A stretch of 64,000 bases of DNA from a virus (taxonomy: Duplodnaviria; Caudoviricetes), in IMG/VR virus record IMGVR_UViG_3300030433_001804, positions 1 through 64,000 of that record; one strand, given 5' to 3'. Positions 34,733-63,468 of this stretch are shown here, in pieces. Every line of letters begins with the position of its first letter. Position 1 is the first letter of the stretch. The notes under the pieces are model-generated. The model did no database searches, was not told the origin of the DNA, and saw only the letters and a list, made by a program, of their open reading frames with translations. A program made the position numbers and the translations under genes.

Positions 34733-36268
34733 TCATTCTAACACCTCTACATCTTCTAAAGTATTACAATCAGAAGCAAATTTATCATCTCTAATTCTAT
34801 TACATCTAGGAAATCTAAGACCTATATTATTATTAGAATCTCTAGTAACTAAATCTGCACTAACTTCTAAAACAGTTCTCGGTAAGAACGAATATGTTCC
34901 GTTATCTACATTAGAAATAATAGTTCTTAATTCTCTTGTTAATCTAAGTAAATCTTCATCACTAAATCCAGTTCCTACAGAACCAATAGAAATCCATTCT
35001 CCTTCATTTCTTACACCAATACCAAATGTAGCAAAAACATTTGACTTAGCACCCTCACCGTATTTAGCATTAAGAATAGCAACATCTAGTTCAATTCGTG
35101 GAGGTTTATATTTAGCCCAACCGATGCTTCTTTTACCTGCCTCATAGGGTAAGGTAGTATCTTTGACAATAATGCCCTCAAAGCCATCATTAATCGCTCT
35201 ATTATAGAATGCTAGAACATCACCACCTTCTTCCATTCTATGTGCTTGGTCGGGTAAGTCTTCAAAACAAAGCAATCTTTCATGGTAAGGTAAATCCATA
35301 ATGGTCTTACTTCCTATCTTAAGGCAATCAAATATAACCCACTTGACTTTAACCTTCTCTCTTGCTTCCGCATGGTCTTTAGAATGAACTCTTGTTCCCA
35401 TTAGTTTATGTTCAGCAGGTGAACCATCATCTTTAATTGGATATATTTCACCATCAAGAATACAATTTTGCACACCATAACTTCTAATTCTTTCAACAAC
35501 ATCTTGAAACTGGGGAGTAACTACCTTACCTTTACGATTAAAGATAATCACATTATCTCCTTCTTTATGTATCTGATAACGATTGCCGTCATACTTGTAA
35601 TCTACAATCTTATTTTCCGGCCACTTATTCATAGGCACATCTTTAGCCAACATAGGAGCAACAAATGTTCCGTGTGATAGAAGTGTAGGAGGATTTTCAC
35701 CCATTTCATAATATGTTGCAGTTCTTTCAATACTGTTCAAATTAAGATGTTTCTTAACTTCGCTAACTTTCTTATCATAGTATTTAGCCATAATCTTGAC
35801 TACTGTTCCTTTGTTAATTCCATTTCTAGGAGTTCTGAGTAAATAGCGAACAAACCATCTTCGCTCTAATGCTGACATATCCCTAATAGCAAAATGAAAA
35901 GTATCATAATTATTTGAAGTGATACTACCATAATCCATTTCTAATAGACGCTTAACATTAGCAATACTGAAAGGATTACCTTGTGTTTCTGCTGAAGAAT
36001 CTAGATAATATAATGCATCCCCTAAATCATTATGTGCATTGTAATTACCTTCTATCTCATCTTCAAAGATATCAAACGCCTTTGCTATCCACTTCTTTGC
36101 TTTTGCTAAGGCTATATTATTAGCAGTTAATTCATCCTTAGAAAGAATAGAAAGCACTAGAGGAACTTCATCAAAATTCTGTAAGTCTCTTGATATTCTT
36201 GTTATCTGTTGGGTTGGTATTAGACCGTCCGTTGATTCTAACATTCGGCTCATCATTTTCCATGTCAT
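34733..36268 (-). CDS. lig: ATP-dependent DNA ligase
   Basis: PMLA, YKYDGNR (motif I), ILDGEI, FDCL, EGIIVK, WAKYK, VGTGFSD, LRFPR. Confidence 0.95.
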   Translation of the reverse strand: MTWKMMSRMLESTDGLIPTQQITRISRDLQNFDEVPLVLSILSKDELTANNIALAKAKKWIAKAFDIFEDEIEGNYNAHNDLGDALYYLDSSAETQGNPFSIANVKRLLEMDYGSITSNNYDTFHFAIRDMSALERRWFVRYLLRTPRNGINKGTVVKIMAKYYDKKVSEVKKHLNLNSIERTATYYEMGENPPTLLSHGTFVAPMLAKDVPMNKWPENKIVDYKYDGNRYQIHKEGDNVIIFNRKGKVVTPQFQDVVERIRSYGVQNCILDGEIYPIKDDGSPAEHKLMGTRVHSKDHAEAREKVKVKWVIFDCLKIGSKTIMDLPYHERLLCFEDLPDQAHRMEEGGDVLAFYNRAINDGFEGIIVKDTTLPYEAGKRSIGWAKYKPPRIELDVAILNAKYGEGAKSNVFATFGIGVRNEGEWISIGSVGTGFSDEDLLRLTRELRTIISNVDNGTYSFLPRTVLEVSADLVTRDSNNNIGLRFPRCNRIRDDKFASDCNTLEDVEVLE

Positions 36269-53034: not shown

Positions 53035-53630
53035 GTTTAAACCTCTTTTGTCTTTTAATGGACTAAGAAAACGCTTAGATTGCTAATTAAAGCAACGGTA
53101 ATGCGTGTAAAAAGGTGAGCATCCTGAAAGTTTTCGTGCTTTTTTAGAAAATTTTCCGAATTGTGAATATGAAAGGTGGGGGAGGAGTCAGCGATTGTTA
53201 GTCGCATCTCATTTGTGTAGCCCCTTGACTCGACTCCCCCATATTTGTCTCAACAAAATAATACCGCCTCATTTAATTGAAGGAGGCGAGGCGTGTATCA
53301 CTGTCAAGACAATAGGGAGGGTCGCCTACCCTATATAGGTCGCCCATGGGGGGTCAATCTTCGTTTCTATAGAAGCATAACCTCCTCATCTAACCCATAT
53401 GCCCCATGCTATCCAAAAGAGCAGTGTGGCCGAAACCGCACCCCAAAACAGCCTAAGACCCAGATTATTTATTGGGTTACATCGAGGTTTGATACAATAT
53501 ATGTTAGTGATGATACTTCCTTTGCTAGTGTAAGTTTCTACTAAACAGTTACTTCCTTGAGGAATATCGCAACCGCATTTTTGACAAACTTCGTCTTTGT
53601 CTGCCTTTCTATAGACTTCATCTAGCATTC

Positions 53631-54174: not shown

Positions 54175-54636
54175 TCAAACAGAAAGAAGTGAATCGTAAT
54201 TTCCGTCCCATTCTTGGTTCTTATACCATTTAGCCAAACGGTTTCTTGCTCGGACTCCTTCAGCCTTTGCATACTCTTCTGCATCAGCATAAAGTCCTCC
54301 ACCGCTTCTGTTTTGCTTTTTGGTAATAGCACCAATTATTGGGTCTTGATTAAAATAAGTTGTTGATGCTTCTTCTACTGTAGAAACTATCTTATCAATA
54401 ACTACTCTAACTGAAGCAGGTATTGATGATTTTTGTCCCTTCTTGAAAGGTGTTCCATCACGGCCTCTTAATAGTGCTTTAAGTGCGCCTCGACAGGCTT
54501 CTCTTTCATTGGGGTTTGTGTCACCAATACTTAAATTAAGCAAACAGACTTGCTTTAGTCCTTCATCTAAACCTTCATCAGCATCTAGATATTCTTCAAT
54601 TTCTATCTTTAAACTATTCCATGTTGTGTCATCCAT
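54175..54636 (-). CDS. Hypothetical protein, distant paralog of 57048 and 58838 genes
   Basis: MDDTTWN...LNLSIGD...PFKKGQKSS...WDG parallels WN...LSLGD...FPxARKGRESS...WDG. Start ATG 54636. Confidence 0.6.
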   Translation of the reverse strand: MDDTTWNSLKIEIEEYLDADEGLDEGLKQVCLLNLSIGDTNPNEREACRGALKALLRGRDGTPFKKGQKSSIPASVRVVIDKIVSTVEEASTTYFNQDPIIGAITKKQNRSGGGLYADAEEYAKAEGVRARNRLAKWYKNQEWDGNYDSLLSV

Positions 54637-55103
54637 TTTATTCATCTCCGTAGTTTTCAGTGTTGTCGTGTTCTCTATAGTGTTCCCATGCATCAGTCCA
54701 CTTCCATGGTTTTTCTATATATTCTAGCATTATATCTAAATTAGGTATGTGTCCCGAATCAACCATTGCTCTTGCTAATCCACTCATATTATAATGATGA
54801 GTGAACCACGGTTGTTTTTTATCAATCAAAAAATATTTTCCTTCTTGAAGTGCCTTAATTACAGGGTCATTACTTTCTTCCATATTTATTCCTCCTCGGT
54901 TTTTTCTTCATAATTTCTGAGCATTTCTATCAAAGATTTAGGTGGTTTTTTCCATGGCAAACTCATGTTTGCTAATCTATGCATTCTGCACATAGCCAAA
55001 TCGTATGCATCTTGTAAACTCATACCGTTTAGTGCATGATAGATAAAAACTTTATTTCTCTCGCTCCAATTAACAGGTGCTATATTCTTTCTGTCTTCCA
55101 TAT

Positions 55104-55890: not shown

Positions 55891-56097
55891 CGGACATTAT
55901 ACTATATTATATATCATATAACATATAGATATTCTATCAATATAGATATAAGTTCAATTGAGAAGCACCCAAGGTAATGTTTAGACAGGGAGGGTAGAAA
56001 ATCTTAGACTAAAAGTTGTCATATGTTTATAATGTAAATAGCAAATGCTTGCTTTCTTTTGACCTATCTTACCATATGGTTGCGCTTTGTTTTAACC

Positions 56098-56262
56098 ATG
56101 TGTCGGTAGTCGGGGATTTCTACCCCGTAAAAGAGTCGTCACTCTACCTCAAACTTAAGTGGCCTTAATGATGGAAAATACAGTATCTCAACCGCACCCA
56201 TTATATGGATTGTTTAATGCATTCACAACTTTCCATCAATAAGGACACCAGACCCGACAAGG
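56098..56262. ncRNA. Candidate structured RNA element (~165 nt)
   Basis: TGTCGG/CCGACA closing stem, CCTTAATGATGGAAA/TTTCCATCAATAAGG stem, CGGGG/CCCCG and AGAGT/ACTCT hairpins; no ORF. Confidence 0.45.
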
Positions 56263-56266
56263 TGAT

Positions 56267-56509
56267 TTAACCAAGTGCGTTAAATAAATCCTCCACTATG
56301 TCATTCAACATATCATGCATAAGTGTAAATTTGACAGCGTTATCAATACCTGCCATGATTGCCTCCATGGTGATAATACCTATCATAGCGTCAGGTTCAT
56401 CAGTGAAGATAGTCATATCTGTGAAAACTGCTGATTGTATAGAATTATCAACATAATTTTTCATGTTTGGGCTAATGCTTGCGACTCTTTGAACTGCTGC
56501 TTTTGACAT
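56267..56509 (-). CDS. Cassette gene, hypothetical (80 aa)
   Basis: Divergent from palindrome 56557; ACCATA element 33 nt before ATG. Confidence 0.65.
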   Translation of the reverse strand: MSKAAVQRVASISPNMKNYVDNSIQSAVFTDMTIFTDEPDAMIGIITMEAIMAGIDNAVKFTLMHDMLNDIVEDLFNALG

Positions 56510-56617
56510 GCTAAGACTATTTATTATCTTATTAGATATGGTGTAAACAAAGCAACACCATATGGTTGTAACGCTTTGTTAAAACAACCCTAAGTAATAG
56601 GTCATTTAATCTATAAC

Positions 56618-56917
56618 ATGAGAAAAATAACACAAGACGCAATAAGAGCCTTTGAAAATGGATATAATTTCAAGCGAGGTAATACCCGTGTAATAGTTGG
56701 CCCATACTACGGTGAATATTCGGTTCGTCTTTTACTACATGGGAACTTAATCGCTGAAAGAACCTCAAACGGTGTATATATTCAAGACGGTGGTTGGCAG
56801 TCTAACACCACAAAAGAACGCTTAAACGGTTTGAGTGGGGTTAATATCGTTCAAAGGAATTGGCAATGGTATTTGAACGGTGAGGCTTGGAACGGCCACA
56901 CAATCCGCATTAATTAG
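56618..56917 (+). CDS. Cassette gene, conserved phage-type hypothetical protein
   Basis: LHGNLIA...GWQSNTTKERLNGL...QRNWQWY; ACCCTA 31 nt upstream; GAAA and TTCG hairpins downstream. Confidence 0.75.
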   Translation: MRKITQDAIRAFENGYNFKRGNTRVIVGPYYGEYSVRLLLHGNLIAERTSNGVYIQDGGWQSNTTKERLNGLSGVNIVQRNWQWYLNGEAWNGHTIRIN

Positions 56918-57047
56918 GCGAAAGCCCCCTTCGGGGTATAACAAAGCGTTACCATATGGTTGCACTTTGTAAAAACCATACTAATATGACATGAAATCCT
57001 ATCTAGTGCTTCAACGGGAATAGGAGCAAAATAAGGAGGTAAAAAAT

Positions 57048-57575
57048 ATGAAACAAGCAAACTGGAATGTAAATACAAGTAAAGTAAGGGCTTGGGCTGA
57101 AAAGCAACCAAAGTCCGATAACCTGAGTGCGGTTTTATTGTCCCTATCATTAGGTGACAATGCCGCTACTGACGAATTAAGAAGCACATATTGGACAGCA
57201 ATCCGTTCAATTGGTTCTACTATGGATGGTTTTCCATCAGCCCGCAAAGGCCGAGAATCAACTCTAACCGAGGAACAACAGATTGCATTGGCGAATGTGG
57301 AGAGTGTGGTAGAAACTGCCTTTGCTTCAATCCCTACTGAATACCACGCAACACTACTGGCCGTAATAGTTCCTCACGGGCGAACTGGCGGAGTTTATTC
57401 ATCAATGGACGAAATGACTGCTTACTATGTCAATCAAGCACATAACTACATGGTCACTTCTATCAAAGAAGGCCGATTCGCTGGTAAGTTGAATAAGGCG
57501 GGTGTTCCTCAAATCACCCCTCGCCCTACAAAGGCTGAGAAAGACGCTCAAATGGAGGACTCAGAAGAGGTTTGA
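57048..57575 (+). CDS. Cassette gene, paralog A
   Basis: AAGGAGGT SD; LRSTYWTAIRSIGST, ARKGRES, PHGR shared with 58838-59335. Confidence 0.85.
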   Translation: MKQANWNVNTSKVRAWAEKQPKSDNLSAVLLSLSLGDNAATDELRSTYWTAIRSIGSTMDGFPSARKGRESTLTEEQQIALANVESVVETAFASIPTEYHATLLAVIVPHGRTGGVYSSMDEMTAYYVNQAHNYMVTSIKEGRFAGKLNKAGVPQITPRPTKAEKDAQMEDSEEV

Positions 57576-57710
57576 GCCTAAACTGCAACTATTCCCGTTG
57601 TAGCCCCATATTATTCCCTTCGGGGTTTAATTGGGGTTTAACAAAGCAATACCATATGGTTGTGATATCTTTGGTATCTAAAACCATATACAGAATTCAT
57701 TGATATTCTA

Positions 57711-58281
57711 TGTCGGAGGTCATGAGCCGACAGGGATTGACAGAATACCCTCTTGGTCGGGGGTAATGTGCAGGTATTCGTGTAGTGCGACATAACAGTT
57801 TATGATGGGGTAATCCTTGAGTTGAAACTGCTCTATGAAAGTTCGTAATCCTCAAAAGGGGTTTGGTCTAACTAACCAAATGAATATACTTGGCTTGATG
57901 GCTTCTAGAATAGGAGCGACCTAACCGAATGTAGGCGGTATCTACATCATCATTAGTGATACTCAATTCACTATCCCACCTTTTATTCCATATGGCGGAT
58001 TGGCCATAAACCATATAGAAACGAGCCGAAACACAGCGTGGTAAGACAGACGGGTAAACAATACAGTAAGCCATGGCGACCTGTAGGGAAATCAAGAGGA
58101 AGTGCAGTTAATCGGATATGTATGGAGTAGGCGAAGTTTCTATTATACTCATTTGGTGCTTAAGCGATAGATAAAAGCGATGATAGTTCACCATGAAAAA
58201 CGCTATACAGGCATATCAATAAAAATCAAATTACAATAAGGATTGTTCCCTGTTACTGTGTAGCCCTTTCATGGGGTTTTT
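57711..58281 (+). ncRNA. Candidate large structured ncRNA (~550-570 nt)
   Basis: Fills a full cassette slot with promoter-like element and terminator-like hairpin, but no + strand ORF of 60 aa; numerous stems. Confidence 0.6.
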
Positions 58282-58349
58282 CAAAGAACAACCATATGGT
58301 ATGGTGCTTTGCTAAACATACCCTACATAATGAATTTAATTTAATTATC

Positions 58350-58703
58350 ATGAACGCAGAAAATAAAGAGTTTAGAGTTGGATTATGTGCAGGACGACAC
58401 GATATCATTGATGGCGATATTGAGATTAAGGATTTTATATTTCCCAATCCTATTGAAAACCCTAATGACTTTGAGGCTCTAAGATTTCAAGCCAATGATA
58501 AGTTAGAGGATATATGGTTCGCAGGTGGTAAGATTTATCTTTATGTTACCGGGCTTGGTCAAGCCTTGACCGTGGTTTTATCCGAGGCCATGCACCTATT
58601 CGCTTTAACTGAGTATGATATGGAGTTTACCGTAATGCATTATGACAGGGAAACCGGGACATACAAAGGTCATAACTTCTTCGGGGGTGAAGAACCCATC
58701 TGA
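58350..58703 (+). CDS. Cassette gene, alpha/beta hypothetical protein
   Basis: Start ATG 58350, 30 nt after ACCCTA; GLCAGRH and LYVTGL..AL motifs; GCC-TTCG-GGC hairpin after stop. Confidence 0.75.
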   Translation: MNAENKEFRVGLCAGRHDIIDGDIEIKDFIFPNPIENPNDFEALRFQANDKLEDIWFAGGKIYLYVTGLGQALTVVLSEAMHLFALTEYDMEFTVMHYDRETGTYKGHNFFGGEEPI

Positions 58704-58837
58704 AGCCTTCGGGCGTTTAACCAAAGTAACACCATATGGTTGGGATTGCTTTGCATATACCGACCATATACGATTAGCCATTGTATCTATTGCTCAGGGG
58801 GATTGAGTGTTAAACTTTAGTTTAGGAGGTAACAAAA

Positions 58838-59335
58838 ATGAAAATAGAAAATTGGAATATAAACACAGCAAAGGTTCAACTATGGTTGGATAAAGAAGAC
58901 AGGGGAGAAAATGGTCAAGCCATTACTCTCTCTATGGCATTAGGAAATGCCTGTGATAACGATGATTTGAGGTCTACTTATTGGACTGCAATTAGAAGTA
59001 TCGGTAGCACATTTACAGATTTCCCGATGGCTCGAAAAGGCCGAGAATCGTCATTACCAGAAGATATACTCCTATCTGCGACTTCTGTAAGGAATGCGGT
59101 TATAACTGCCTTTGCGGGTATTACTGATGCAGATATTATTTTGAAGGTCATACTACCTCATGGTCGCTCCGGTGGCTCATATGAAACAATTGATGACCTA
59201 GCGGAATCATACGGACAAAAAGCCTTTGATGCTCTTGTTAAGGGATATAAGGAAAACCGTTGGGATGGTTCAATGGAGGGCAATGTCCCTCTAATGTCTC
59301 CACCACCTGTAAAAAACAAGGAGGCTAACGAATAG
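58838..59335 (+). CDS. Cassette gene, paralog B
   Basis: AGGAGGT SD; clear paralog of 57048-57575. Confidence 0.85.
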   Translation: MKIENWNINTAKVQLWLDKEDRGENGQAITLSMALGNACDNDDLRSTYWTAIRSIGSTFTDFPMARKGRESSLPEDILLSATSVRNAVITAFAGITDADIILKVILPHGRSGGSYETIDDLAESYGQKAFDALVKGYKENRWDGSMEGNVPLMSPPPVKNKEANE

Positions 59336-59447
59336 GTTTAACGCTTATTCCCCCTGTAGCCCCTGTGGTTACGGTTATGCAAAGCAAACCATATGGTTGT
59401 AGTTACTTTGGAACGACAACCCTAATACTATCAATTGAGAAATAGAT

Positions 59448-60158
59448 ATGTCAAGCGATATAACCTATGTAAGAACTATGAAGATTAACTACGGTAAAAA
59501 GATGGGCGACCTGCAATTTGCCAAATTTGCCAATGACCTGCAAAAGAAAGGTATTACTATACGCCCTCATTTTGGTAGCAAACCTACATATGGATTTAAT
59601 GAGAAAACTGAAACTAAGAAGACCTATCAAATCGTTATGGACGATAAGGTTGTATTTGAAACCAAATATATAACTGATAGAGATGCTGCTTATGATGCGT
59701 TTAGTCCTTTTCTGACTCTAGAAACTTGTGATGCTCAAATAGAAAAAACCTCTAAGGATTGGACTGAGGTAGAAGGTAGCGTAATTGAAATTGATTTTGA
59801 CCTTGAAGGGGAGCAATACAAATGGTATGACCATGAGATTAATTACCAAAACGGACAATCTATGACCATTAGGTTAGCCAACTCTAACACTGGTGTTATT
59901 CTTAAATTCACCACTACATGGAATCCTGACGGTATTCAGCGCAAAAAAACTATTGAAGAAGTTATGGTTAATCAAGTATTGAATGACATGGCTAAGATTC
60001 AAGGCACTATTGAGGGTCGTTTGAAACTAAAGAAGTATGGCTATGATGTTGAAAATGCGTCTATTGACTGTCATTTTGATGCTAAGACTGAAAGCCGTAG
60101 CGAATGCGCTCCTGACATCATTAACCGTGTTAAGGAGGCTAAGAAGGCTCATTCTTAA
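59448..60158 (+). CDS. Cassette gene, hypothetical (236 aa)
   Basis: ACCCTA 29 nt upstream of ATG; hairpin then palindrome downstream. Confidence 0.8.
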   Translation: MSSDITYVRTMKINYGKKMGDLQFAKFANDLQKKGITIRPHFGSKPTYGFNEKTETKKTYQIVMDDKVVFETKYITDRDAAYDAFSPFLTLETCDAQIEKTSKDWTEVEGSVIEIDFDLEGEQYKWYDHEINYQNGQSMTIRLANSNTGVILKFTTTWNPDGIQRKKTIEEVMVNQVLNDMAKIQGTIEGRLKLKKYGYDVENASIDCHFDAKTESRSECAPDIINRVKEAKKAHS

Positions 60159-60663
60159 GCCATAAACCCGTAAGTCCTAATTAGGCAGGGTATAGCAAAG
60201 CAATACCATATGGTTGTATAGCCTAAAAGATTACACAACCATATGGCTTTGTTTCAAAATTTTTATTTTACTGTTCGTTTAAATGAGTGGCTTTAAATCA
60301 ACAAAAGAGGCAGTTTTGCTTAATATATTAGCCTACTTTGCCCATACTATTATATCATGGACTGTTCTGCCTTTTACTAAGCAACTAATATGTTCGTGAG
60401 AATAACAACTTATGCTATTTAGCCCACTATACTAGAATAAGAAACAATGATTAAACAGTCTAAACAAATAAACAAACAATACTGCTAATATAATAAAACG
60501 ATTTAAACGAACAATGCTATAACGGGCCGCAACTATAAACTTTAAAGGAGAATAATTAAAGAAACAACTTTTTATCCTGTTTATATAAACCATATAACCT
60601 AAAAAAAAACGCAAGTGCCAAATAAATTCCGCCACATTTTTTGAGAAAAAAGGAGATGATACG

Positions 60664-60897
60664 ATGACATGGAAAGATATATTGAAGTTTAATAAAAAAT
60701 CCCTTGCGGATATAGCCGGAGAAATGGATAATATGATGGGTGGAAGAACTAAATTCCGTGAAGCCTATGAAAGTGGTAGATATGGTAATGAATCTCAATC
60801 TAAAGAAAAATTGCTTATGCTATTAGATGAATTAAAAGATGTTGATTCAAAGGCAAATAGCCTAATTAGCCATATCAAGGCTATGCCTTCTTTTTAA
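60664..60897 (+). CDS. MTWxDILK-family small protein
   Basis: Begins MTWKDILK. Confidence 0.75.
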   Translation: MTWKDILKFNKKSLADIAGEMDNMMGGRTKFREAYESGRYGNESQSKEKLLMLLDELKDVDSKANSLISHIKAMPSF

Positions 60898-60931
60898 AAA
60901 AAATCCGCCACAAATTTTTGGAGAAATTAAC

Positions 60932-61315
60932 ATGACATGGGAAGATATATTGAAACAAAGAATGACTAGAGAAGGAATAAGTGAAGAACATAGAGAAAGG
61001 CTAAGAGCAATGCCTTCTACTAAACAACCTATGTTTGATAAACGAGATAATCCTTATGATATGATAGATGATAAAGTTGATGAAATTATTGACTCTAACA
61101 AACTAGAGATGTTTCTGCAAATGTCACAGGCTCAATTTATGAGGTCTTATGATGTTAAACAATTTACTCCTGCTCAACCTCCTTATGAAAAAATAGAAAA
61201 AATGAAAGATGAACTTATGAGTTTGATAACTGAGTTGTTGGATGAATATAGAGAAGAAGCAGAAAGAAATCAAGGAGAAAATCCTTTACCTAAATATGAC
61301 CCTAAAGGCATTTAA
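60932..61315 (+). CDS. MTWxDILK-family small protein
   Basis: Begins MTWEDILK. Confidence 0.75.
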   Translation: MTWEDILKQRMTREGISEEHRERLRAMPSTKQPMFDKRDNPYDMIDDKVDEIIDSNKLEMFLQMSQAQFMRSYDVKQFTPAQPPYEKIEKMKDELMSLITELLDEYREEAERNQGENPLPKYDPKGI

Positions 61316-61349
61316 AAAAATCCGCCACAAATTTTTCGGAGAAATTAAC

Positions 61350-61601
61350 ATGACATGGAAAGATATTCTAAAAGCCCAAACTACTCTTTTACAGTTTAGT
61401 AGGCAAGCCGAAATGGATAGGAAAATTCCAGAAATAAGGGCTAAACTAGAAGGTATGCGTGGACGGGCTAAAACCACAGAAAGAGGAACTTCTGAAGATT
61501 TGGCAACCGTAAAATTAGAACAATTAGATAAGGTTAGAAATGTAGATGATTTTGAAAACTTTTATGATGATAACCTAAAATATTTTTTAGGGGAAAAATA
61601 G
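61350..61601 (+). CDS. MTWxDILK-family small protein
   Basis: True start ATG 61350 (MTWKDILK) after the repeat element. Confidence 0.75.
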   Translation: MTWKDILKAQTTLLQFSRQAEMDRKIPEIRAKLEGMRGRAKTTERGTSEDLATVKLEQLDKVRNVDDFENFYDDNLKYFLGEK

Positions 61602-62018
61602 ATGTGGAAAGATATACTCAAACTAGACATGGAAGAAGCCCGTAAATTGGGTGAAAGGTATGCTCCCGAAGATATGGAACAGGCTCGACAAGATAAGTTG
61701 AAAACTGTTCTAACTAAAGTAAGGCCAGCCATTGAGAAAATTTTAGAGATATATGTTGATGATATTGCTGATGAAGATGCAGATAGGCTAAGAATGTCAT
61801 TGGTTTCTATGATGAGAAATTTACCTATGGCTCCTAGAATGTCGAGAGATACTAATATGGAAGCAAGAAATAAGAATAAGGAAATGGTTGAAACTTATCT
61901 TGCTAGATTGGAAGACCTATATCAAGAGGATAAGTCTCCAAGAAAAACGACCAGTCTTATTGATAGGGCTAGAGAGATGAATAGAAAACACCCAAGAATG
62001 GGGAGTGGAAGAAAATGA
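61602..62018 (+). CDS. MTWxDILK-family small protein
   Basis: Begins MWKDILK. Confidence 0.75.
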   Translation: MWKDILKLDMEEARKLGERYAPEDMEQARQDKLKTVLTKVRPAIEKILEIYVDDIADEDADRLRMSLVSMMRNLPMAPRMSRDTNMEARNKNKEMVETYLARLEDLYQEDKSPRKTTSLIDRAREMNRKHPRMGSGRK

Positions 62019-63037
62019 TAAGAAAAATGGGCGAAGTTATGCGAGGGTCTGAATTAGACAAAGACGCTCAAGAAGAAATTAAGGGGTATGCAGAAGATTA
62101 TGCTGATAAACTAAAGATTCCTTCGTCACAAAGAAAGGAGTTTCTTAGTTTGATTTATGCAGGTATGATGAGTAGGTTTTATGTTAGAAATCTAAATGAA
62201 AAGGGGGATGTCAGCCCAAAGACCGGAAAAGAATTGTCTTTGATACATCCTTCAAGACGCTTAGGTTATGAAGAAGAGTCTGAAGCAGAAAACAGAAACA
62301 AGACTCAAGTTGAGAGTGCCGCAAGAAATAGAAGAAGGTTCCAAACTACCGTTGATGAGATGTCATCTGAAATCACAGAAGAAGTGGCTCAAGAGGAAAT
62401 AACCGAGTTGGCTGAAGAAGTAAAAGATTCTAATTTGAAACAGGCATTGGATAGAATGGTTCTTACTTTTAGCGATAGACTTTCTGATGATAAGTTATAT
62501 TCTGAAAGGAGAAAAATATTAGATAAAGATATTCAAGAACTTAGACAGGTAATTGAATCCGATGAGTCCTATACTCAAGAGGATATTATGGCATTTGGCC
62601 AACTTATGGCGAAACTGCAAGGAAAGCCATTCTTTTCCAAGATACATGAAGCGCAACTCAAAGATATTGCTGAAATGATGAGAAGTAAATATAGATTTGA
62701 TGATAGCAAAAATGCTTCATGGCAAGACTCGCTAAGAAAAAGCAGGGTAACTGAGGCTATCAAAAGATTTGAAGAAAAACATCTAAAAGATGAACCTATG
62801 GAATTAAGTAAAAACTATGTGGAGGAGATTGATATGAATTGGAAAGAAGTGCTAAAAGGAAGTTGCGGAACTGAAAAACTAGATGATGAAGAGTCTGAAG
62901 AAATGGAAAAGACTGAAGCAAAACCTGATTTTCTAGATTTAGATAAAGATGGTAACAAAAAAGAGCCAATGAAAGAAGCGGCTAAAGATGCTAAGAAAAA
63001 ACCTAAATCTAAGAATCCTTTTTCAAGAGATGATTAA
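62015..63037 (+). CDS. Charged helical protein with internal WxxxL(K/R) motifs and DxDxDG loop
   Basis: Internal SWQDSLRK and MNWKEVLK (ATG 62834 preceded by GGAGG); DLDKDG. Confidence 0.7.
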   Translation: MIRKMGEVMRGSELDKDAQEEIKGYAEDYADKLKIPSSQRKEFLSLIYAGMMSRFYVRNLNEKGDVSPKTGKELSLIHPSRRLGYEEESEAENRNKTQVESAARNRRRFQTTVDEMSSEITEEVAQEEITELAEEVKDSNLKQALDRMVLTFSDRLSDDKLYSERRKILDKDIQELRQVIESDESYTQEDIMAFGQLMAKLQGKPFFSKIHEAQLKDIAEMMRSKYRFDDSKNASWQDSLRKSRVTEAIKRFEEKHLKDEPMELSKNYVEEIDMNWKEVLKGSCGTEKLDDEESEEMEKTEAKPDFLDLDKDGNKKEPMKEAAKDAKKKPKSKNPFSRDD

Positions 63038-63039
63038 TC

Positions 63040-63195
63040 ATGACATGGAAAAAAATTCTAAAGAATGAAGAGGAAGAGGAACTTCCGGAGCATGTAAAGA
63101 GAGCAAGAGAAAGAGTTAGACAGGGATTGCCTTCTAAAGAACAACCGCTTATTCCTCAGTTTGATGACGAAAGGAGAATGAAGAGAGGTGAATAA
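63040..63195 (+). CDS. MTWxxILK-family small protein (51 aa)
   Basis: MTWKKILKNEEEEE... read from sequence. Confidence 0.7.
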   Translation: MTWKKILKNEEEEELPEHVKRARERVRQGLPSKEQPLIPQFDDERRMKRGE

Positions 63196-63196
63196 T

Positions 63197-63316
63197 ATGA
63201 CAAGGTGTAAACTATTAGATTCGTGGCTTGATACTCAGTCAAAAAAAATTGATAAAAAAGAAAAAGAAACAGGTAAAAATATAATATCTGATGTTCTAAA
63301 AGGCGATAAACAATGA
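63197..63316 (+). CDS. Small hypothetical protein (39 aa)
   Basis: GAGGTGA SD; stop overlaps next ATG. Confidence 0.5.
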   Translation: MTRCKLLDSWLDTQSKKIDKKEKETGKNIISDVLKGDKQ

Positions 63317-63468
63317 CTTGGAGGGATATTCTTAAGGTCGAAGATGACGAGAAGAAAATGGCAGGGGCAGTAACAACAACTTCTTCTCCTGCTCTATTCA
63401 ATGTCACATATGGATATCGTAGAAAAAAGAAAAAGAAAGAGGATGATGAAGATGGTAAAGGAAACTAA
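63313..63468 (+). CDS. MTWxDILK-family small protein (51 aa)
   Basis: MTWRDILKVEDDEKK... read from sequence. Confidence 0.7.
   Translation: MTWRDILKVEDDEKKMAGAVTTTSSPALFNVTYGYRRKKKKKEDDEDGKGN

Follow-up and report, generated by a model that had tools for sequence, protein, structure and literature searches.

To our knowledge, base-paired closure of a prokaryotic messenger RNA (mRNA) is limited to a few bacterial cases (hok, hbs and icaR), and in archaea the cooperation of the untranslated regions (UTRs) at the 5' and 3' ends has been shown genetically, without an assigned structure. In this study, two paralogous genes, A and B, were analysed on a 64,000-nt stretch of viral DNA (positions 1 to 64,000 of the IMG/VR record IMGVR_UViG_3300030433_001804, hereafter the window), which is identified by its gene content as part of a magrovirus, an ocean virus with Marine Group II archaea as hosts. 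The 5' and 3' UTRs of each gene are complementary to each other and are predicted to close the message into a panhandle. A literature search, which was not exhaustive, returned no prior description of this structure.

Among the described systems, the hbs mRNA of Bacillus subtilis combines a 14-bp pairing between its 5' and 3' UTRs with a ribosome on a strong Shine-Dalgarno (SD) sequence, and together these keep RNases out (PMC5737220). Genes A and B resemble hbs in being small, in having very strong SD sequences that lie outside the duplex, and in the contiguous long-range 5'UTR-3'UTR duplex, which is longer than the approximately 14 bp of hbs. In contrast to hbs, the magrovirus duplex runs from transcript base 1, takes the entire 3'UTR including the stop codon, and has a median of 23 pairs; it belongs to an archaeal virus, so that the bacterial RNases Y and J1 are not applicable as such; and the case for it rests on deep covariation, while that for hbs rests on experiment. 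The tac/fbi pairing of hok (plasmid R1) is similar in that the extreme 5' end pairs with the 3' end, with covariation support and alternative local structures, but until its 3' end is trimmed, hok keeps a closed form in which the ribosome-binding site is concealed and antisense binding is prevented (PMC9841398). In the magrovirus genes the ribosome-binding site is left free in the closed form and the 3' arm is shielded by a hairpin, and no toxin or antisense partner is evident, although no search was aimed at antisense RNA. In icaR of Staphylococcus aureus, as here, the 3'UTR has a C-rich motif (UCCCCUG-like) whose partner is a G-rich stretch of the 5'UTR, but the icaR 3'UTR pairs with the SD sequence itself, leading to repressed translation and cleavage by RNase III (PMC3868564). 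The magrovirus partner is instead a dedicated 5'-terminal arm, and the true SD sequence is left out of the pairing.

Long-distance 5'-3' interactions are also found in eukaryotic RNA viruses, as the kissing loops of plant-virus 3' cap-independent translation elements and the cyclisation sequences of flaviviruses, where they act on genomic RNAs and deliver initiation factors or replicase. The magrovirus RNAs likewise have 5' and 3' hairpins with complementary, covarying loops that could close the RNA, but they are mRNAs of an archaeal DNA virus, and their pairing extends to a full duplex. Archaeal ribosomal RNAs (rRNAs) and other RNAs are flanked by processing stems with bulge-helix-bulge motifs, which lead to circular intermediates. 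The long-range pairing of flanks around a functional RNA and the archaeal host are common to both, whereas the magrovirus helix has no bulge-helix-bulge and begins at the predicted primary 5' end. A complete panhandle that spans from the predicted first base of the transcript to the stop codon, that compensatory changes have preserved throughout a family of abundant, uncultivated archaeal ocean viruses and that is conserved down to 37% protein identity, offers a sequence-defined model for archaeal mRNA decay protection and for ribosome re-use through end closure. The A/B family apparently needs a special mode of expression in these viruses.

Complementary UTRs of genes A and B

The core arms of gene A (GCTTCAACGGGAATAG and CTATTCCCGTTGTAGC, Table 1) are complementary at 15 of 16 positions, the exception being a U.U mismatch, exactly as the initial annotation had described. 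Pairing between the arms of gene B (58792-58815 and 59336-59360) was reproduced as well, including the two G.U pairs noted before, and one U.U mismatch and one bulged U were found in addition. When the 177 open reading frames (ORFs) of the genome were ranked by the complementarity of their 5' and 3' flanks, genes A and B took the first and second places, with scores of 19.2 and 16.0 compared with 8.4 for the median and 12.2 for the 95th percentile. No flank complementarity was seen for a third, distant paralog, which lies inside an operon on the minus strand (54175-54693). The 5'/3' UTR pairing of A and B is confirmed, far beyond chance.

The sequence TGTAGCCC was present downstream of gene A, of the non-coding RNA (ncRNA) unit between the two genes and of gene B (at 57599, 58259 and 59355, respectively), and 5 matches were found in the window against 0.66 expected. 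The earlier statement that all three units are followed by TGTAGCCC and a hairpin stands for TGTAGCCC at all three, while the hairpin is strong after A, moderate after the ncRNA unit and weak after B. The hairpin abutting the gene A 3' arm is a probable 3'-end or terminator structure. A small ORF in the 3'UTR, starting from an ATGA overlap, was also considered and was rejected, its frame not being kept between homologs.

Homologs and covariation

Viral and metagenome contigs were searched with protein alignment, giving 117 related loci, all marine, and 107 distinct A/B-type genes from marine viromes and metagenomes (37-99% protein identity) were extracted with both flanks. With an ungapped 5'/3' helix score of at least 10 as the pairing criterion, the helix was observed in 106 of the 107 genes, among which 74 different arm pairs occurred. 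The mean duplex energy was -25.1 kcal/mol for cognate arms, compared with -14.3 kcal/mol for non-cognate and -12.7 kcal/mol for shuffled arms.

Covariation was tested on an alignment of 44 distinct whole transcripts with a 14-pair helix and 500 shuffles. In this alignment 93.5% of the cells were paired, compared with 76.1% in the shuffles, and 12 of the 14 pairs were altered on both sides. Double-change cells numbered 108 against 29 expected, a value reached by none of the 500 shuffles, and pairing dropped to 43-59% when the partner was slid by 1-3 columns. The distal helix on the stop-codon side also covaries between lineages (GCAUCA/UGAUGC, GUAUC/GAUAC and GAAUC/GAUUC). The initial annotation had claimed, from the two paralogs, stems that differ in sequence and still pair, and had set covariation across homologs as the test that a lack of complementarity would fail; the compensatory changes bear out the former, and the latter came out in favour of the pairing.

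Duplex anatomy, transcript ends and predicted folding

The consensus of the 5' strand was 5'-G1 C2 U3 U4 C5 (A/G)(A/G) G G G G N A A A..., and that of the 3' strand was ...U U U N C C C C (U/C)(U/C) G U A G C-3'. The pairs G1-C and C2-G are invariant, and positions 6-16 vary freely while staying paired. U4 stands opposite a U in 31 of 45 distinct helices, and at positions 8-11 a G is strongly preferred on the 5' strand (30-37 of 44).

In 64 of 89 genes a TATA-like element, ACC(C/A/T)TA, begins 28-31 nt upstream of G1 (at 29 nt in 47 genes), and the base before G1 is always a pyrimidine in the homologs; G1 is predicted to be the transcription start on the basis of this spacing and of the preceding pyrimidine. 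This agrees with the initial placement of the arms at the predicted 5' end of the transcript. In gene A the offset of the TATA-like element is 33, yet its CTAATAT core lies at the usual 27 nt from G57008. At the other end of the duplex, a CCC..GGG hairpin directly follows the 3' GC with a gap of 0 nt in 42 of 50 genes, and it was found upstream in none of the 50.

When the whole UTRs of the 44 transcripts were paired, the best duplex began at transcript nt 1 in every case, and its other strand began at the first nt of the stop codon in 33 and within nt 1-5 in all of them. The duplex has a median of 23 pairs and an energy of about -33 kcal/mol, leaving single-stranded a median of 22 nt before the AUG (SD sequence plus spacer) and the coding sequence. 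Folding of full transcripts, which had been proposed as a check, placed the clamp in the minimum-energy fold of all 44 with a probability of about 1.0, and in the full predicted transcript of gene A it was present in the minimum-energy and centroid structures alike. The SD sequence (AGGAGGT at 58824-58830 in gene B) was not consistently paired, with a mean unpaired probability of 0.50 over the 44 transcripts and the higher value given in Table 1 for gene A. A K-turn reading of the internal loops was ruled out by loop geometry.

Both arms of gene A are also able to fold locally, the 5' arm by itself as a 5'-terminal hairpin (GCUUC..GGAGC) and the 3' arm as the hairpin CUGCAAC-UAUUCCC-GUUGUAG, and the loops of the two hairpins are complementary over 7 nt (GGGAAUA / UAUUCCC). 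Of 47 distinct sequences, 45 have a stabler 5'-terminal hairpin (e.g. GCUUC-loop-GGAGC) on the sense strand, with an energy of -6.7 kcal/mol compared with -3.4 kcal/mol on the antisense strand, and 47 of the hairpin's 318 pairs are G.U, indicating a structure at the RNA level since these pairs exist on the sense strand only. The claim that the G-U pairs work only in the sense orientation, made initially for the long-range stem, is thus strongly supported for the local 5' hairpin. The mismatched U4 of the long helix has an A or a G as its partner in this hairpin, and this explains the lasting asymmetry between the arms.

Function of the paired ends

The pairing probably protects the message or aids its translation. 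The reading favoured here, held with moderate confidence from sequence comparison and folding models, is that the A and B mRNAs are end-paired (panhandle), nuclease-resistant closed messages which can still be translated; nuclease protection also fits best among the several functions listed in the initial annotation. Transcription would begin at the G of GCUUC, and the first 21-34 nt (about 28) of the transcript would pair with the entire 3'UTR, from the stop codon to the GC dinucleotide beside the G+C hairpin. About 22 nt with the strong SD sequence would remain single-stranded together with the coding sequence, so that each base would be either helical or covered by ribosomes. The 5' triphosphate end would be buried beside the 3' hairpin, and both ends and both UTRs would be shielded from host exo- and endonucleases, giving a long-lived translatable mRNA. 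The 5'-terminal hairpin probably forms first, during transcription, after which the local hairpins could kiss via their complementary loops and exchange strands into the long-range duplex once the 3'UTR has been made. Since the long-range duplex wins at equilibrium in the predictions, the local hairpins are best seen as co-transcriptional intermediates.

Several points weigh against protection as the explanation. Protection of the 5' end could come from the local 5' hairpin by itself, so that protection is insufficient to explain why the long-range pairing has been kept. The preference for G at positions 8-11 hints at sequence-specific recognition or at an SD-like or anti-SD-like role, neither of which protection covers. 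Both RNA ends of the A/B mRNAs are predictions, and the 3' end is uncertain because in the window gene B is followed by a weak hairpin (-2.3 kcal/mol, with no advantage over shuffles) and the U tracts past the hairpins are short (1-5 U). Strand evidence from the long-range helix itself is also weak (20 G.U vs 10 A.C), and to this extent the initial argument from sense-strand G-U pairs is weak.

The alternative that survives best is closed-loop translation, in which the clamp would set the stop codon beside the ribosome-binding site and terminating ribosomes would re-initiate on the same mRNA, in a base-paired counterpart of the eukaryotic closed loop and of the plant-virus kissing loops between 3' cap-independent translation elements and the 5'UTR. 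The geometry suits it, with the duplex starting at the stop codon itself in most transcripts (33/44), the 5' strand ending shortly upstream of the strong SD sequence, at a median of 22 nt before the AUG, and the distal helix beside the stop codon covarying too. Termination-reinitiation has been described for both archaea and bacteria (PMC6728339), and in haloarchaea translational control requires joint action of the 5' and 3' UTRs (PMC2636863). However, about half of the 3' arm has to be melted by a ribosome that terminates, which makes the geometry at termination uncertain, and three neighbouring cassettes cope without any UTRs. Ribosome hand-back is therefore regarded as a possible but doubtful principal function; it is compatible with protection, and both may coexist.

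Conservation of the arms beyond what pairing needs (invariant positions 1-2, the U.U at position 4 in 31/45 and G at positions 8-11 in 30-37/44) would be expected if the helix, with its GGGG/CCCC core, were a platform bound by the A/B protein or by a host factor, autoregulating or packaging the mRNA. The confinement of the clamp to the A/B gene family among the 177 genome ORFs and the invariant basic motifs ARRGRES and PHGRTGG of the proteins point in the same direction. On the other hand, no RNA-binding fold or family is recognisable in the A/B protein, constraints of the initiator region and the hairpin could also explain the conserved base of the helix, and U4 is accounted for by its pairing in the local 5' hairpin. 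Such a protein-binding role is considered unlikely.

A hok-like lock, by which the full-length mRNA would be silent until 3' trimming removes the 3' arm and refolds the message, is improbable since the ribosome-binding site is free. The phylogenetically supported pairing of the 5' and 3' ends is like that of hok tac/fbi (PMC9841398), and the alternative local hairpins could take over once the 3' end has been processed. But the SD sequence is not consistently sequestered in the closed form, as noted above for the 44 transcripts and for gene A, the product is a soluble helical protein of 165-175 aa rather than a small membrane toxin, and the 3' arm is shielded by the downstream hairpin.

Processing or circularisation, in which the helix would be cut by a double-strand or bulge-helix-bulge endonuclease, or the 5' end and the 3' hairpin would be sealed, is very improbable. 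RNAs that lie between processing stems do become circular in archaea, as in the processing of rRNA and tRNA introns by EndA and RtcB, and the G1-C2 end, paired with a GC that adjoins the CCCC..GGGG hairpin with a gap of 0 nt, has a coaxial geometry resembling a nick. The duplex is also long enough for an RNase III stem (about 20 bp of double-stranded RNA). Instead of a 3-4-3 bulge-helix-bulge, in which a 4-bp helix lies between two opposite-strand bulges of 3 nt, however, the helix has a 1x1 U.U at position 4 and in-register 1x1 or 2x2 loops, and the internal loops flank a 4-bp CUUG/CAAG helix. RtcB, EndA and RNase III were searched for among the virus proteins, and none of them is encoded. 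Processing or circularisation, which had been among the initial proposals, therefore found no support by the archaeal bulge-helix-bulge route.

The virus does encode a second ATP-dependent ligase-like ORF of 835 aa (genome 82500-85007, L121:739-3246, outside the window), additional to the first DNA ligase of 511 aa (window 34733-36268), but its adenylation domain (residues 248-434) matches DNA ligases, and about 400 of its other residues have no family. An RNA_ligase Pfam match at genome 83262-83801 turned out to be the DNA-ligase-type adenylation domain. It is just as improbable that, after 3' trimming to the hairpin, the coaxial G1-C2 end is sealed into a circular mRNA, for which a ligase of the host or the 835-aa protein could be the candidates. 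If true, a circular mRNA would be an exonuclease-proof and endlessly translatable message in an archaeal virus.

The least probable explanation is an inverted repeat acting at the DNA level (recombination or inversion sites, transposon-like ends or cruciforms around a mobile gene cassette), which would account for inverted repeats bracketing a small gene in a modular array with repeated promoters and for long-range duplex energies that are alike on the sense and antisense strands, but which is disfavoured by compensatory change between orthologs and paralogs across the 74 arm pairs instead of fixed recognition sequences, by the conserved T/T asymmetry at position 4 that recombination between the arms would erase, by the constant orientation relative to promoter and hairpin (inverted in 0/50, hairpin downstream in 42/50), by the fixed distance of the arm start from the promoter element, and by the dependence of the 5' hairpin on G.U pairs that exist only in sense RNA.

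Virus identity and genome context

The whole virus record is 96,385 bp long and complete by CheckV, and the window is its first part. The window codes for a family B DNA polymerase (PolB) split over two genes, an ATP-dependent DNA ligase with an archaeal/eukaryotic N-terminal domain, a Cpn60/TCP1 chaperonin, a UvrD helicase, a Cas4-like nuclease and a clamp-loader-like AAA protein. The same gene set was described for magroviruses, head-tailed viruses of Marine Group II Euryarchaeota, and the split polymerase is a mark of magrovirus group B (PMC5434244). The identification as a magrovirus follows from the split PolB, the archaeal-type ATP-dependent DNA ligase and the chaperonin, in accordance with that description.

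Among isolated phages, BLAST of the region and of protein A found no similar DNA or proteins. A bacterial-phage reading with sigma-70 promoters and intrinsic terminators was rejected, as these showed no enrichment (11 found vs 13.5 expected) and the gene content is like that of archaeal viruses. On these grounds the region was read by archaeal rules, namely TATA-like promoters, frequent leaderless mRNAs, and SD sites only where a leader is present. The Rfam scan of the window returned no family at the gathering threshold, the tRNA/tmRNA scan returned none, and a retron or reverse-transcriptase idea was dropped after no reverse transcriptase was found in the search.

Cassette array and promoters

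The positions of the features in and around genes A and B are shown in Table 1. The region 56071-60214 is an array of small plus-strand cassettes, each with a palindrome and a TATA-like ACC(C/A)TA element upstream. The palindrome is CAAAG-N-ACCATATGGT-N-CTTTG and sits just upstream of each TATA-like box; ACCATATGGT occurs in 8 copies, all inside 56071-60214, against 0.03 expected. The palindrome was also kept in all related viruses, and a dimeric transcription regulator, through which the whole cassette array is controlled, probably binds there.

Table 1. Positions in the window of the features of genes A and B and of the neighbouring non-coding unit
Feature	Position	Strand	Description
Gene A promoter	56951..56989	+	ACCATATGGT palindrome core of CAAAG..CTTTG, then TATA-like box ACCATACTAATAT
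Gene A 5' arm	57008..57041	+	Core GCTTCAACGGGAATAG at 57008-57023; G57008 is the predicted transcription start
Gene A Shine-Dalgarno	57033..57040	+	AAGGAGGT; outside the clamp, unpaired probability 0.89 in the ensemble
Gene A	57048..57575	+	175-aa all-helical protein
Gene A 3' arm	57575..57604	+	Core CTATTCCCGTTGTAGC at 57589-57604; stop codon to GC anchor
Hairpin abutting gene A 3' arm	57603..57637	+	G+C rich; -17.4 kcal/mol, z -3.5
Non-coding unit	57712..58284	+	573 nt; from predicted transcription start to UGUAGCCC and a modest hairpin
Gene B promoter	58731..58771	+	Palindrome and TATA-like ACCATATAC starting at 58763, 29 nt before G58792
Gene B 5' arm	58792..58818	+	Begins at predicted transcription start G58792
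Gene B	58838..59335	+	165-aa paralog, 46% identical to A
Gene B 3' arm	59333..59360	+	Stop codon TAG to GC anchor; duplex begins at stop-codon nt 1

Three cassettes, with their ATG at 56618, 58350 and 59448 (promoters at 56588, 58321 and 59419), have no SD site, and the A of each ATG lies 29-31 nt past the start of ACC(C/A)TA. From this offset and the missing SD sites, the three are probably expressed as leaderless mRNAs, which calibrates the predicted transcription start for the whole array. An offset of 29-30 nt also hits the first base of the Rfam match in the non-coding unit described below. Genes A and B are set apart from the other cassettes by leaders of 40-59 nt and very strong SD sites.

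Neighbouring non-coding unit

The first 272 nt of the non-coding unit between genes A and B cover the full manA RNA model (RF01745) with 43.7 bits and an E-value of 7e-9 for the window. This unit stands alone, is driven by its own promoter, and gave the sole match in an E-value scan of the window. manA-like matches were also found in three related viruses (41.9-52.4 bits), at L004:4061-4334, L005:830-1103 and L006:2097-2365 with large insertions, and all of the matches lie below the Rfam gathering threshold of 55.2 bits. For manA RNAs, assembly into cages has been reported (bioRxiv 10.64898/2026.07.01.735769). A manA-like RNA in an archaeal virus, if true, would extend the range of the manA family.

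The initial annotation had likened the ncRNA unit to genes A and B in its TGTAGCCC and hairpin, and the view that it shares their design holds in part. In the unit's minimum-energy fold, an ACAGGGA close to the 5' end is paired with a UCCCUGU close to the 3' end, but this closure was set aside, since neither sequence varies in 4 homologs and the fold as a whole does not do better than shuffles. GUAGC is absent from one ncRNA homolog. The 3' module shared with A and B is real, while the pairing of the ncRNA ends stays putative, its invariance giving no covariation.

Two further stretches were noted beside this unit. The short non-coding stretch at 56098-56262, after the first ACCATATGGT copy (56071), begins with TGTCGG like the manA-like RNA and may be a small RNA. 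Two minus-strand genes are separated by a gap of 440 nt at 53040-53480, where another TGTAGCCCC (53216) lies within a GGGGGAGGAGTC...GACTCGACTCCCCC stem, and this gap may hold a further structured RNA.

Encoded protein and other observations

The A/B protein (165-175 aa) is predicted to be soluble and all-helical, with a pLDDT of 79. Searches with Pfam, PHROGs, a PDB sequence profile, Foldseek, VIA-align and the ESM Atlas gave nothing informative, and fold matches were limited to a generic three-helix-bundle similarity with Z below 8.

In both paralog lineages, GGAGG was observed 12-20 nt before the stop codon (57548-57575 and 59308-59335; alignment columns of about 612-640 in all homologs), where the codons for Gly-Gly or Glu-Asp in the acidic tail GGxEEE, which is conserved, give rise to it. 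As an SD-like sequence ahead of the clamped stop codon, it could have a role in ribosome pausing or re-initiation. Farther downstream, at 60664-63468, a run of small ORFs was found that all start with MTW(K/E/R)DILK, which looks like a common N-terminal targeting or cleavage tag.

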